DNA of 64,000 bases from an uncultured Chloroflexia bacterium (GCA_963734535.1 CAVTHS010000008.1:256001-320000), one strand, 5' to 3'; counted from the first letter of the stretch, positions 47,265 to 50,727 are shown. Notes: generated by a model not told the origin, from the sequence alone. Made by a program: numbers and translations.

Positions 47265-48506
47265 TCAGGGGCCCGGTGTCGCGTCGGGCGTCAGGGTCGC
47301 GTCGAGCGTTGGCGCGGACGTCGGAGTCGGCGCTGGTTCCGCATTGGGTGTCGGAGTAGGAGTTGGTTCCGCTGGCGAGATCGGGGCCGGCGTGGGCACC
47401 ACGTCGGGTGTCGGTGTCAGGGTCACGCCGGCGGTCGGCGTCGGGCTTGCGTCGGGCGTCACCACGGGCACCGCGTCTGGCGTCGGGGTTGGGCTCTCGA
47501 GCGTAGTCGAAGTCACGACCTCGACCGTGTCCCGCCCGGCGAATGTCCCGCCGCTGCGCAGGGAGCCCTGCACAGTGAATGTGAGCACCCCGCGACTGGC
47601 GCCCACGATTCCGGCCATCGCACTGGGATCGAAGCTGACCGCCACCCGGCCGTCCTTGTCCGCCGCCGCGCCGCTGTTCGGGATGCAGGCATCGCGGAAG
47701 CAGAGTTCCACCGAGGAGAGCGGGATCTCCGAGATCCTCCGCGGTGCGGTGATCGAACGGACGAAGACCGTGATCTGCTGCGCCGAATTGTCCGAACCCA
47801 GCTGGGCGATGCGCCGGAGCCCCGGATCGGGCTGCGGGATCGAGATCGGTAGCGGCCCGAAGTCGATGACCGCTGCCGACGGCTTCGCGACCTCCGCGCT
47901 GCCGCCAACGACGGCACGATCAAGGAGCCACGCCCCGGAGGGCGGAGCCGTGACCCGGTGGAACCTGCTGAGCACGGATCCGATGGCCGGGATCCGAAAT
48001 GCATACTGGCCGACGACGCGCACCTGGTTGTGGCTGAAATCGTCGGAGATGTTGTTCGCATCACCCTTGGTGACAAACCGCCCATTCGACAGGACCTCGA
48101 CCACGCGGTGCGTCACGACCTTGCCGTCTACCTCGAGGGTGAGGATCATCCCAGGCTCCACGACGGCTGGCGGCCGGACGAGAACGATCAGGTCGCCGGG
48201 AAGAATGGTCGGCGCCATGCTGCCGCCCTCGACACCGAGGACGTGATACCAGCGATTGTCGACGAGACCGTACCCGATGAACAGGAACAACACGACGGCC
48301 GCGAAGAGAGCTGCCGTCGAGGCGGCGCCCACTGCACCGCCGAACCGGCGAAGCACGGGCCGCCAGCCGCGCGGTGCCGGGTCCTGTCGCGGGGGCAGGT
48401 ACAGGACCACGAACCCCGTGGTCCCCCCGACCTGCTCGCCATCCTCGGGATCGACCGCCAGCGGAAGGCTCGCGGCCACTTCCGTTGCGGGAGTCATCTC
48501 GGCCAT
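47265..48506 (-). CDS. SipW-type (S26B) signal peptidase fused to a C-terminal beta domain and Pro/Thr tail
   Basis: GGSMAPTILPGD, VTHRV, TKGDAN..D; then SGAWLLD..., a globular region and PT repeats. Confidence 0.85.
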   Translation of the reverse strand: MAEMTPATEVAASLPLAVDPEDGEQVGGTTGFVVLYLPPRQDPAPRGWRPVLRRFGGAVGAASTAALFAAVVLFLFIGYGLVDNRWYHVLGVEGGSMAPTILPGDLIVLVRPPAVVEPGMILTLEVDGKVVTHRVVEVLSNGRFVTKGDANNISDDFSHNQVRVVGQYAFRIPAIGSVLSRFHRVTAPPSGAWLLDRAVVGGSAEVAKPSAAVIDFGPLPISIPQPDPGLRRIAQLGSDNSAQQITVFVRSITAPRRISEIPLSSVELCFRDACIPNSGAAADKDGRVAVSFDPSAMAGIVGASRGVLTFTVQGSLRSGGTFAGRDTVEVVTSTTLESPTPTPDAVPVVTPDASPTPTAGVTLTPTPDVVPTPAPISPAEPTPTPTPNAEPAPTPTSAPTLDATLTPDATPGP

Positions 48507-48543
48507 CGGCAGTGCTCCAATCGCCGTGTCATGGCGAGGACCT

Positions 48544-48570
48544 GGGGGAGGGGTGGGTTACCCCTCCCCC
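48544..48570. terminator. Hairpin downstream of the TasA-like gene
   Basis: GGGGGAGGGGT-GGGTT-ACCCCTCCCCC. Confidence 0.7.
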
Positions 48571-48589
48571 AAAGCCTCCCGGCTCGAGG

Positions 48590-49159
48590 CTAGAAGGTGG
48601 GATCCGCGGGCTGGGCGCCGTCCACGACGAGATTGAATGTCGCGGAGTCGCCCTGGTAGTCGTTACCGGCGGACGTGTCGAGCATGAACTGGTAGTAGAA
48701 GCAGTGGGTGATGTTCACATCAAGCGGATTGGCGATGATGCCAGCCGAACTATTCGACCGGACATCCAGGGCGTTCAGGGCGCCATCGCCCCACACGACG
48801 GGCCACGAGCCCGGGTTTGCGGTACCGCAGTACGTGTGGTGGACGCGGACGTTGAGCTTGTTGAACATCGCCGCGTCGCCGCCAGTGAACGCTGACGTGA
48901 GGCGGTACTTGAGCGGCAGTGTGCCAGGCGCGGAGTTGTACACGAAGACTTCGTACGGGTTGGTCCACTCGCCGGGGGCCATGTTCGAAATGGTGATCGA
49001 GGTGGCGTCCGCACCGTTGAAGCTGACGTGAAGCTTGCCGGCGGTCGCCGTGACCGGATCGGTTGCCTGCGACGTGAACCAGGCGGAGGTGCCAACGACG
49101 CCGGAGATGAGGACGAAGCTCGTCGCAAGTGCGAGGAAGAGGCCGAGTCGCTTGCGCAT
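48590..49159 (-). CDS. TasA/camelysin-like protein with SipW-class signal peptide
   Basis: MRKR-hydrophobic-GTSAWFTS...ATAGKL, NMAPGE, AGNDYQGDSATFNL; AAAGGA RBS. Confidence 0.85.
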   Translation of the reverse strand: MRKRLGLFLALATSFVLISGVVGTSAWFTSQATDPVTATAGKLHVSFNGADATSITISNMAPGEWTNPYEVFVYNSAPGTLPLKYRLTSAFTGGDAAMFNKLNVRVHHTYCGTANPGSWPVVWGDGALNALDVRSNSSAGIIANPLDVNITHCFYYQFMLDTSAGNDYQGDSATFNLVVDGAQPADPTF

Positions 49160-49235
49160 GATCGATCCTTTCGTGCTTCCTCCGCCAACTCGGGCGGAAC
49201 GATTGATGGCGACACCGTAGGGATGACCACGCCGG

Positions 49236-49326
49236 CCGCCATCCGTGCCAGCCCGTAGGCGGGTACGCGTTCAAACCGTGCAGGCAGGGGTCTGAGTGCG
49301 TACAGGGTGTGGTCCCCGGGCGCGGG
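49236..49326. promoter_or_regulatory. Conserved upstream element, copy 1
   Basis: GCCGCCATCCGTGCCAGCCCGTAGGCGGGTACGCGTTC...TGCGTACA...CCCCGGGCGC, nearly identical in its core to 52457-52552. Confidence 0.7.
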
Positions 49327-49516
49327 TTCTCACCCGGGCGAGCACCCCCTTGCCGTGCACCGACCGTGTCCTGGGCCCAATCCCGCCGCCGCTCCGATCC
49401 GACGGCCGGCGAGCCTTCGGACGACCTCTGTGTGACCTCCCGGCGGCTGGTGCCGTTGGGCCGAGCAATCCTGGCGAGGCCAGGGCCGCGCCGTCGGTCG
49501 TCGCGAGTTCGACCGC

Positions 49517-50727
49517 TCAGGGAGCGAGCGTCGCGTCGGGCGTCGGGGTCGCGTCGAGCGTTGGCGCGGATGTCGGGGTGGGATCTGGGTCGAGTGGCGG
49601 CGTCGGCGTGGCCACCACGTCGGGCATCGGCGTCGTCGTGGGGTCGGCGGTCGGTGTCGGGGTCACGTCGGGCGTCGAGGTCGGGGTACGTCGGGCGTAG
49701 GGGCCCGTGTGGGGATCGGGGTCACGTCGGGCGTCGGTGTCGGCTGGAGATCGAGCAGCGGGTTCGGGCCCGGTGCTGCGCCAGCGGTCGACTCGAGCTC
49801 GCAGCCCGCGAATGTGTCCTTCGTCGTGCCGTAGCACGCATCGGTTCCGTCGCCTCCGTCGAGGAGGTCCTTGCCGTTGCCGCCTTCGAGCACGTCGCCG
49901 TCTTCACCGCCGTGGAGAGAGTCGTCGCCGGCCCCGCCGAGCAGCACATCCTTGCCGTTGCCGCCGACCAGGGTGTCGTTGCCGTCCCCACCGACGAGGC
50001 AATCCTTGCCGTTGCCGCCGTAGATCGTGTCGTTGCCCCCGAGGCCGAACACGAGCGCGCCGCCGTGGCCCGCATGGAACGTGTCGTTACCCTCCGTGCC
50101 GACGATCACCTCGGCGAACGTCATGCCGGTGCATTCTGGCGGGGTCGGCGGGGCGATCGGAGTCGGGGTCGGGGTGGGTGTTGGCCATGAGCCCACCGTG
50201 ATCTGCATCCCGGCGCTCGTCCGGTCCGCAAACGAAGCCTCCGAACCGTTCCAGACCGGGAGGATGTGGCCGAGCCAGGGAACGGTCGCGACGTACAGCC
50301 CGTCGACCTGAATGGGCTGGCCGCTCCAGGCGTTGTTCACGCGGTTCGCGTCCCCGCGCGTGACGTAACGTCCCGTCGGCGTTGACGGCCACCACGCGAT
50401 GGGTGACGACCTCGCCGCCCACGCTCATCACGAGGATCATGCCCGGCTCGATCTTCGAGGGAGCCGGCGCGACCAGGATCAGGTCCCCACGCGAGATTGC
50501 CGGCTCCATCGAGCCGCCCTCGATCGTGATCATCCGGTACCAGGGGTTGCCGACGATCCCTGCTCCGATGAAGACGGCGAGCGCCAGGGCGGCGAACAGC
50601 GTCCACTTCGACCAAGGCACCGAGAAGCCGCCCGACACGAGCGATGTCGTGCGAGCGGCATCGCCGGGCGAATGCGGACGGCTTCGGTCGAGTCGCGAAA
50701 GCGCGTCTGGACCTGGGTTCCGCTCAT
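49517..50727 (-). CDS. SipW-type peptidase fused to RTX-like Ca-binding repeats and a Pro/Thr tail; indels near 50640, 50365 and 49700
   Basis: AGGAG-ATG at 50727; [40 protein letters not shown]; GGNGKDxLxGG nonapeptides. Confidence 0.8.

Follow-up and report, generated by a model that had tools for sequence, protein, structure and literature searches.

An open question concerning fibres built of TasA-like subunits is how they are started, capped and attached to the cell outside Bacillus. A locus that bears on it is located in a stretch of 64,000 nucleotides (nt), here called the window, from the assembly of an uncultured Chloroflexia bacterium (GCA_963734535.1, CAVTHS010000008.1:256001-320000). 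On the minus strand of the window, beside genes for TasA-like subunits, lie two long genes in which a signal peptidase of SipW type is followed by a segment resembling the cut site of a fibre subunit and then by a surface domain. Gene 1 (47265..48506, minus strand) is an intact SipW-Ig open reading frame (ORF) of 413 amino acids (aa), recognized in the ORF list and by TIGR02228 and PF00717, while gene 2 (49517..50727, minus strand) is a SipW-RTX fusion gene present in the assembly as five frame pieces. Results of our analysis indicate that the clade to which these fusions belong is a concrete candidate for the fibre-initiator role in Chloroflexota and Acidimicrobiia. At present such genes are named only 'signal peptidase I', and their substrate half goes unrecognized.

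Architecture of the fused enzymes

The product of gene 1 comprises, in this order, an N-terminal membrane helix, a peptidase domain of SipW/SEC11 type, the motif S-G-A|W-L-L-D (the bar marks the predicted cut), an Ig-like domain and a Pro/Thr tail; its N-terminus is in common with that of protein P0002. The catalytic domain (residues 67-179; 47970..48308, minus strand) scores 58.0 bits against TIGR02228 (cut-off 51.85), corresponding to model positions 11-130 of 158, and contains Ser96 within GGSM, His133 within THR and Asp149 within GDAN. As stated in the original prediction, the catalytic motifs are kept: Ser96, His133 and G148-D149-A150-N151 do not vary among the 25 sequences of alignment A1, 23 of which are fused proteins. 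The match of gene 1 to PF00717 (24.9 bits, the fused enzymes overall reaching 24.9-33.7 bits) appears to reflect the fold in common with S24-type peptidases; the general-base position is occupied in gene 1 by the His of the THR motif, as opposed to the Ser-Lys dyad of S24 peptidases of the LexA/UmuD type. The scores against the Bacillus SipW equivalog NF046067 (38.6 bits for gene 1 and 49.8 bits for the stand-alone enzyme of the locus) stay below its cut-off of 190, and the family matches point to a SipW/SEC11-type peptidase, but not to an equivalog of Bacillus SipW.

The sole membrane helix of gene 1 is a signal anchor at residues 59-77 (48276..48332, minus strand; Kyte-Doolittle scan, window 19, peak 2.41). 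The same scan revealed no second helix after the catalytic domain, and the TIGR02228 match stops at position 130; the C-terminal helix of bacterial SipW corresponds to model positions of about 131-158. A helix after the domain is lacking in gene 1, in the gene-2 piece and in 5/5 fused relatives tested, while it is present in 2/2 stand-alone enzymes tested, including that of the locus (helices at 39-57 and 158-176); the absence of the C-terminal helix from the long genes, noticed in the original prediction, is thus borne out by hydropathy. Between the membrane helix and the catalytic Ser there is also an N-x-W-Y motif (NRWY in gene 1, residues about 84-87, 48236-48247).

Behind the catalytic domain gene 1 continues as PPSGA|WLLDRAVVGGSAEVA, followed by the Ig-like domain and the Pro/Thr tail. 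The junction (residues 188-210, PPSGA and then WLLDRAVVGGSAEVAKPS; 47877..47945, minus strand), with a predicted cut between Ala192 and Trp193, contains the cleavage-like segment PSGAWLLDRAVVGGSAEVA just as it had been quoted, at residues 189-207. The Ig-like beta domain (residues 221-331; 47514..47846, minus strand), which has a Cys pair, matches no Pfam family and occurs also in the fused proteins P0005-P0012; the translation ends with the Pro/Thr-rich C-terminal tail (47268..47513, minus strand).

In gene 2, the GDAN motif, the junction (50179..50247, minus strand) and the RTX repeats are located on one unbroken piece (49666-50424), so that no stop or frame break separates the C-terminal half of the peptidase from the passenger. 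Neither here nor in gene 1 is there a stop or a separate ORF between the two parts. The RTX block (49822..50130, minus strand) comprises about six Cys-flanked calcium-binding nonapeptide repeats (PF00353, 67.5 bits vs. 23, in 4 stretches) and forms the 27-nt periodic repeat family D2. Gene 2 falls short of the RTX toxin and serralysin families (NF033943, NF035945 and others; 60.7 bits vs. 1000 and 34.5 vs. 500), and only the repeat block matches their hidden Markov models; its passenger is not a toxin. The N-terminal piece of gene 2 scores only 39.3 bits against TIGR02228 because a frame shift cuts the domain.

Relationship of the junction to the N-termini of fibre subunits

The intact subunit gene between the two fusions encodes TasA1 (48590..49159, minus strand; 189 aa), a TasA/camelysin-like protein recognized by TIGR04088 and PF12389. 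Its SipW-cognate signal peptide (...VVGTSA|WFTSQ...) scores 24.2 bits against TIGR04088 (cut-off 19), and its match to PF12389 (22.9 bits vs. 22.5) covers residues 3-65 only. A profile built on TasA1 (A3) matches the solved TasA structures 8AUR, that of the fibre (E 0.0023), and 5OF1 (E 0.0048); in the 8AUR match Phe28 lies opposite TasA Phe29, and the cut of TasA1 was therefore placed at TSA|WF; TasA1 is, to judge from these matches, a TasA relative. Its motif TSAWFTSQATDPVTATAGKL had been quoted correctly. This does not hold for the motifs attributed to the second subunit, TasA2 (about 50919..51826, minus strand), a gene with a C-terminal extra domain that is broken into at least four frame pieces: VSAVFQDSVTATQNIDVGTF, and likewise VSAVFQDSVTAT/QNIDVGTF, had been spliced from two frames.

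The alignment A1 was made without reference to the motif. In 23/23 fused proteins it contains S/T-x-A, then an aromatic or small residue and then Phe/Leu, with the residues corresponding to S190 and A192 of gene 1 conserved at 90% or more, and the C-terminal membrane helix of stand-alone enzymes occupies the same columns as the junction. The junctions have features of a signal-peptide c-region and mature start, i.e., small residues at -3/-1, an aromatic residue or Phe at +1/+2, Asp at +4 and G-x-aromatic about 15 residues further on. No hydrophobic region (h-region) was found by the hydropathy scan between the catalytic domain and the motif.

Profiles of the junction alone were searched against 28,208 ORFs, namely the six-frame ORFs of the source assembly (G000) and the ORFs of nine related loci. 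The class-B profile, built of 19 junctions (positions -4 to +19), with the gene-2 piece and locus L018 outside its training set, matched at E<1 solely fused genes, including these two, and five TasA2-type proteins; the gene 2 junction was matched at E 1.4e-12, and the TasA2-type proteins at E 0.0034-0.16, in register and directly after the hydrophobic core of the signal peptide. The profile of junctions with aromatic P1', built of 81 junctions from cluster representatives with the window's own protein left out, gave six matches: TasA1 of locus L013 (E 0.0014), TasA1 of the window (E 0.021) and four fused junctions, including that of gene 1 (E 0.013). With neither profile was there a match at E<1 other than to fused junctions and TasA-like cut sites, in agreement with the likeness to the neighbouring substrates that had been noticed at the outset. 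A reverse profile made from 7 substrates matched 2/29 fused proteins at the junction (E<0.01).

Split forms point in the same direction. Genome G006 encodes the RTX part as a protein by itself (L020:8164-9015), which has a signal peptide and the cut site IGTSA|YFSD and the start of which is overlapped by a SipW with a C-terminal helix; the gene-2 piece is 48% identical to this protein over 229 aa (BLASTP, E 1e-56), and NGSEA|SFAD of gene 2 aligns with that cut site. Between the Ig-like part of gene 1 and its split form, P0037, identity amounts to 43% over 119 aa (E 1e-22); in P0037, an own signal peptide is followed by the motif TTAYYTDS, a Pro/Thr linker and then the domain. A word search with the passenger region alone returned the query itself as the sole match. 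The in-register alignment with the split RTX protein and the match to P0037 support the claim that the junction resembles a substrate N-terminus and that the fusions are, in the evolutionary sense, of a peptidase and its substrate.

Distribution and variation of the fused enzymes

A profile of the catalytic domain and junction (A2), searched over 50%-identity cluster representatives, matched 26,107 of them at E<=1e-3, 4,570 at E<=1e-10 and 149 at E<=1e-30. In at least 106 of the 150 best representatives no helix follows the domain and the junction motif is present, by a filter which itself demands positions -3, -1, +1 and +2; the expectation that the motif is conserved in homologues was thereby confirmed beyond A1. 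The remaining representatives comprise 23 that are helix-less with a weak or absent motif (some of which visibly carry it, while others look frame-shifted), one with a helix, 12 that end too early and 8 without GDxN. Columns outside the filter are also patterned in the 106 junctions, with hydrophobic residues at +8/+12/+14, Gly at +15 in 47/106, Trp at +17 in 29/106 and Pro at +18-20. Up to +17 this pattern agrees with TasA2 (I12, V14, G15, F17) and with the alignment of TasA1 to TasA on 8AUR. The motifs SMxP, THR and GDxN are kept in order by 135/150 representatives, most of the 15 misses being truncated, and the tether from the IPxxG landmark to P1 measures 8-18 residues in 98/104. The NxWY motif precedes the catalytic Ser in 134/150, and stand-alone SipWs of the same loci are without it.

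The part following the predicted cut varies from <=30 residues (10 of the 106 representatives) through 31-100 residues (30) to >100 residues (66). A 'passenger' behind the peptidase, as the original prediction called it, is therefore present in both genes of the window, but the term does not hold in general: the Acidimicrobiia short forms L035:3524-4408, L041:3791-4375 and L042:2-361 stop about 20 residues after G-A-W-F/Y-x-D and have no passenger. Both short-tail loci that were checked (2/2) adjoin a TasA-like gene with SAAWFTSQD. Since some members end so soon after the motif, what is conserved is a donor-strand-like tail, to which further domains may or may not be added. In 54 long representatives, Pfam recognized RTX (6), PKD, multiple Ig-like domains, CBM96, LysM, SPOR, fn3 and MBG_2, or no domain. 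One protein (L026:3869-5461) contains the peptidase, junction, Ig-like domain and RTX block in tandem, and another (L040:3740-7372), a fusion 1211 aa in length, contains numerous Ig-like repeats; the passengers are shuffled in the manner of modules.

A tree computed from 101 catalytic domains placed the 26 helix-less rows in one group, which contains no helix-bearing row and has a support of 99 in the Shimodaira-Hasegawa-like approximate likelihood ratio test (SH-aLRT); the records of these rows bear the titles Chloroflexia, Limnocylindrales and Acidimicrobiia. The stand-alone enzymes found in these loci group separately (7 rows, SH-aLRT 99), and the split-form enzyme of G006 lies outside the helix-less group, on a long branch. 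On the evidence of the tree, the fused form is thus a single clade, with members in Chloroflexota and Acidimicrobiia. Of 301 genomes sampled evenly from the phylum, 53 have a SipW-type match at E<=1e-10, and in only four of them (G000, G007, G200 and G218) the match reaches the junction positions; the tally takes in the unpublished genome G231, on which no result rests. The fused clade consistently adjoins TasA-like genes, and the type of P1' (aromatic or small) is the same in the junction and in the neighbouring subunit in 13/15 loci (tabulated by eye), a count which is descriptive only, because the loci are related and not independent. The sole TIGR02228 match of genome G007 (95% complete) is a fused gene beside a TasA1-like gene; therefore, the fused enzyme probably serves the major subunit as well.

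Frame shifts in gene 2 and TasA2

Both long SipW genes had originally been taken for single ORFs. While this is correct in the case of gene 1, gene 2 had been read through four single-base shifts, near 50645, 50600, 50370 and 49690. A tblastn search with the intact orthologue of genome G008 placed 50599-50369 in one frame (88% identity) and 50373-49441 in another, with the Pro/Thr tail back in the first; the other two, near 50645 and 50600, were recognized visually when three-frame translations were set against the N-terminus of the orthologue. Genes were mapped by homology, as a filter on GC content at third codon positions failed to tell the frames of this GC-rich sequence apart. Intact orthologues of gene 2 occur in the same gene order in three genomes of the same genus (G001, G008 and G021; loci L014, L015 and L016), and those of G010 and G035 are likewise multiply shifted.

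TasA2 is interrupted by at least three shifts, and there are stops within its C-terminal remnants. Its first piece scores 18.3 bits against TIGR04088 (cut-off 19), and the region 51714-51511 is 82-88% identical to the orthologues of L014, L016 and L018 (tblastn). Remnants of the C-terminal extra domain lie at 50919-51320 in further frames with stops and resemble the orthologue of L018 (e.g., CFEYRFNGNTPEQ); the damage therefore spans all of TasA2 as well as gene 2.

The source assembly is GC-rich and comprises 3.2 Mb in 14 contigs (89.9% complete, 7.1% contaminated). While gene 2 and TasA2 carry at least seven frame shifts in about 2.3 kb, none was found in the 2.4 kb of the other three genes of the locus, and only one in about 23 kb of seven housekeeping genes. 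In the latter, rpoB, uvrA, gyrA, secA, ileS and dnaE are each a single open frame, and rpoC is split in two frames at a C6 run where the conserved LPPELRP needs seven (G000:C2, about 179,888-179,906), which is an assembly indel error in an essential gene. The shift cluster must therefore have a local cause, and poor consensus over a variable surface-protein locus and real decay seem to us about equally probable, so gene 2 of the window may be broken. In Logan contigs of public runs (shares 0.13, 0.08, 0.00 and 0.00), no listed piece spans a frame-shift site; a joint 47331->49548 in one public contig was set aside, as its 22-letter side is too weak to use. Elsewhere in the assembly, a second DNA polymerase III alpha-like gene (G000:C6:18030-20659) matches in two open frames of 333 and 1557 aa, which may be another assembly frame shift.

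Organization of the locus

The minus-strand order, from 5' to 3', is stand-alone SipW, TasA2, gene 2, TasA1 and gene 1. The stand-alone SipW-type peptidase (51867..52436, minus strand) has 189 aa and scores 79.5 bits against TIGR02228 (model positions 15-150). The locus consists of two TasA-type fibre modules, of which module 1 comprises the stand-alone SipW, TasA2 and gene 2, and module 2 comprises TasA1 and gene 1. Upstream of TasA1 there is a 38-nt element (49235..49272, no strand assigned; repeat family D5), which recurs with 95% identity upstream of the stand-alone SipW (52457-52494), i.e., at the head of each module (2 matches vs. 0.00 expected), and the core of which is found also upstream of the stand-alone SipW in a relative of the same genus (L016:11839-11862). 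The element may be a control site, an operator or promoter, common to both modules. Its interpretation as a sigma-54 promoter was dropped by eye because of a misfit of the -12 element, and a scan of 46900-52900 for promoters and terminators gave 0 promoter-like sites and 1 terminator-like site, within gene 1, vs. 2.6 expected.

Downstream of gene 1 there are genes of a Crp-like helix-turn-helix regulator (46384-47085, minus strand) and a PAS-GAF-GGDEF diguanylate cyclase (44607-46235, minus strand); a setting of cyclic di-GMP and biofilm control for the fibre genes is plausible. The 3' ends of genes 1 and 2 contain a 106-nt repeat of 78% identity (47234-47339 and 49486-49591), which takes in the stop codons of both genes and about 30 nt beyond. 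The Pro/Thr tails of the two genes also have 24-nt periodic repeats in common, and together these repeats suggest a duplication or gene conversion between genes 1 and 2.

Proposed function and alternative explanations

The explanation that we prefer, and to which we give about an even chance of being right, is that the peptidase cuts at the junction and thereby releases a TapA-like initiator or end piece of the TasA-like fibre. In the fused clade, the enzyme appears to have lost its second helix, and the substrate's signal peptide its hydrophobic core. Owing to the loss of both hydrophobic segments, the enzyme is joined directly to the substrate cut site (S/T-x-A | W/S-F-x-D) and the mature N-terminus, and both flanking parts would stay outside the cell with the membrane topology undisturbed. 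The mature N-terminus follows the donor-strand pattern of TasA, in which Phe occupies position +2, hydrophobic residues +8/+12/+14, Gly +15 and an aromatic residue +17.

According to this scheme, the N-terminal helix would insert the protein via the Sec pathway, leaving everything C-terminal of the helix extracellular, and the junction would then be cut by the peptidase of the same chain or of a neighbouring copy. The freed fragment would consist of a donor strand followed by nothing, by a Pro/Thr linker or by an Ig-like, RTX or other surface domain. In the manner of TapA with TasA, it could prime the polymerization of the TasA-like subunit encoded just upstream and remain at one fibre end, while the remaining enzyme would continue to process the major subunit. 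The fused proteins would then be the equivalent of SipW and TapA in one chain. Cleavage is favoured because conservation is strongest at -3 (S/T) and -1 (A), which are the positions read by signal peptidase, and because the tether is only 8-18 residues long; a pure strand or linker role would not need conserved -3/-1 residues. If the scheme is true, a signal peptidase acts on a site without a membrane-embedded signal peptide, possibly within its own chain.

Several points weigh against cleavage and release. Signal peptidases normally need the membrane-embedded h-region of their substrate, and the junctions are without one. From short-tail members, no more than a peptide of about 20 residues would be set free. 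TIGR04088, proposed in the original prediction for scoring the internal segments, gave no match in whole proteins at E<=0.1 and in 0/6 junction pieces at E<=10, which is to be expected, as the h-region, the first half of the model, is gone. A small class-A profile (9 junctions) missed TasA1, which was found only by the 81-junction profile and with the modest E-values of 0.0014 and 0.021, and the columns -3, -1, +1 and +2 are circular in the count of 106/150. The junction of gene 1 is a weaker example of the motif, with Leu instead of Phe at +2 and nothing like I-x-V-G-x-W. The at least seven frame shifts of gene 2 and TasA2 also count here, as module 1 may be decaying in this strain. Finally, cleavage is a prediction from sequence comparison.

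The main rival to cleavage is a tail that stays attached as a fibre anchor. The tail of the membrane-bound peptidase would in this case insert, uncut, as a donor strand into the first TasA-like subunit, so that the enzyme would double as nucleation site and membrane anchor of the fibre, like a one-protein usher, with the added domains placed at the cell surface. We regard this as unlikely. The conservation of the donor-strand pattern as far as +17 and the short and constrained tether are in accordance with it, as are the short-tail forms, which carry no cargo for release, and the passengers of other members that include the peptidoglycan-binding LysM and SPOR; TapA has moreover been described as co-localizing with the membrane and suspected of association with SipW (PMC10151520). 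Nevertheless, the strongest conservation falls on -3/-1, peptidase recognition positions that lie outside the donor strand, one would expect an active peptidase to cleave a perfect site situated 11-17 residues from its own domain, and in the split forms this very module works as a released protein. Conserved -3/-1 residues on a short tether could also mean that the junction fills the enzyme's own groove as a pseudo-substrate, either autoinhibitory or as a gate that the true substrate or calcium would open, with independent surface modules as the downstream domains. For such a regulator the clade-specific NxWY motif (134/150) could form a docking site for the tail, and LexA-type relatives, linked to the fused enzymes here only by the PF00717 match, regulate themselves via a cleavage-site loop. 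This reading we consider improbable: the conservation up to +17, the match in type with the neighbouring TasA subunit and the existence of split forms are left unexplained by it, and the matches to LexA structures in PDB are not significant (E 0.4-0.9).

Two further alternatives would deprive the junction of its meaning. In one of them, which seems to us decidedly improbable, the likeness is incidental and the segment is a linker or extra strand of a peptidase which has C-terminal surface domains for its own localization, with no relationship to substrates. The failure of TIGR04088 on the junctions, the modest E-values of the profiles on TasA proteins (0.0014-0.16) and the degenerate junction of gene 1 would be consistent with this, yet among the 28,208 ORFs the junction profiles matched nothing at E<1 beyond fused junctions and TasA-like cut sites, BLASTP aligned the gene-2 piece in register with a protein that bears a genuine signal peptide, and the clade consistently lies beside TasA-like genes. 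The other, that the long ORFs are false fusions produced by indel errors, or dead genes, we find hardly credible. Indel errors do occur in this assembly, as the split of rpoC at the C6 run indicates, gene 2 and TasA2 are heavily frame-shifted, and so are the orthologues in G010 and G035; against this, gene 1 is intact, intact fused ORFs are found in many independent assemblies (23 in A1, 106/150 representatives and the named genome contigs), the fused enzymes form their own clade (SH-aLRT 99), and the C-terminal half of the gene 2 peptidase, its junction and its RTX block share one frame. Such an explanation can hold solely for gene 2 and TasA2 of this strain.

A view that joins cleavage of subunits with retention of the tail is also conceivable, although rather doubtful: the peptidase may be a one-protein assembly platform that couples the removal of signal peptides with the nucleation of a TasA-type fibre and its anchoring in the membrane. 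The donor-strand tail, attached or held in the active-site groove until exchanged, would capture the first subunit as its signal peptide is removed. If this is true, single-membrane bacteria would possess in the platform a functional counterpart of the chaperone-usher pair, and capture would be the sole extra function of the enzyme in the short-tail forms of Acidimicrobiia.

Comparison with known systems

The closest solved relatives of the catalytic domain are SEC11A and SEC11C (PDB 7P2P and 7P2Q; A2 profile, E about 1e-13, positions 5-126). The fused enzymes have in common with human SEC11A/SEC11C a single N-terminal helix and Ser/His/Asp chemistry, while the latter act in a multi-subunit complex and carry no substrate-like C-terminal tail. 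The S24 peptidases LexA and UmuD belong to the same clan (SF) as the S26 signal peptidases and provide a precedent for a peptidase of this fold that cuts its own chain or a partner chain. In contrast to the fused enzymes, they are cytoplasmic, rely on a Ser-Lys dyad and are cut at a site that precedes the domain; a search of PDB with the fused-enzyme profile gave LexA structures at insignificant E-values only, as mentioned above.

A full-text search of the literature, confined to the main texts of papers, found no paper on a SipW-type peptidase fused to its substrate. The one peptidase fusion found in print is the DUF5305-SPase I protein of Anaerolinea thermophila (bioRxiv 10.64898/2026.01.04.697558), likewise a Chloroflexota peptidase of a TasA/AbpX-type fibre locus fused to another protein; its partner, as described there, is a membrane accessory subunit with two helices and no substrate cut site.

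In the case of the tapA-sipW-tasA system of B. subtilis (PMC9674648, PMC10151520), a dedicated SEC11/archaeal-type peptidase is likewise encoded beside TasA-like subunits with a donor-strand N-terminus, together with a minor protein in which a comparable N-terminal strand occurs alongside an Ig-type domain. In Bacillus, the cut site has small residues at -3/-1 and an aromatic P2' (PMC10269814), as in the fused proteins. TasA residues 28-38, directly after the SipW cut, are described as the donor strand, and the N-terminus of TapA is described as resembling it and predicted to complement TasA (PMC9674648). According to PMC10151520, TapA, whose Ig fold is complete, donates its N-terminal strand and is probably active at initiation only. 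Its residues 44-57 suffice to support biofilm formation, both it and SipW are low-abundance proteins with overlapping genes, and it is not conserved even within Bacillus. The system of the window differs in that the minor protein is fused behind a peptidase without a C-terminal helix, with no h-region before the cut site, and in that the added domains of the clade vary (none, Pro/Thr, Ig-like, RTX, PKD, LysM, SPOR and CBM96). No TapA-type family is among the NCBIfam and Pfam matches of gene 1 or the gene-2 pieces, and no direct comparison with the TapA sequence was made.

A further parallel is provided by the archaeal bundling pili, with the TasA homologue AbpA, which is assembled by donor strands, and AbpB, which has been proposed to supply the first complementing strand and has distal adhesin-like beta domains (PMC9245690). 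The proposed role of AbpB is the role that we propose for the released fragment, while the operon, as presented in that paper, has no dedicated peptidase, and AbpB is a separate secreted protein with no fusion. By analogy, the fused system would work like tapA-sipW-tasA and the proposed AbpA/AbpB pair. What sets it apart from these systems, to judge from the proteins' sequences, is a minor-subunit-like part fused to its peptidase, with the C-terminal helix of the enzyme and the h-region of the substrate both lost.

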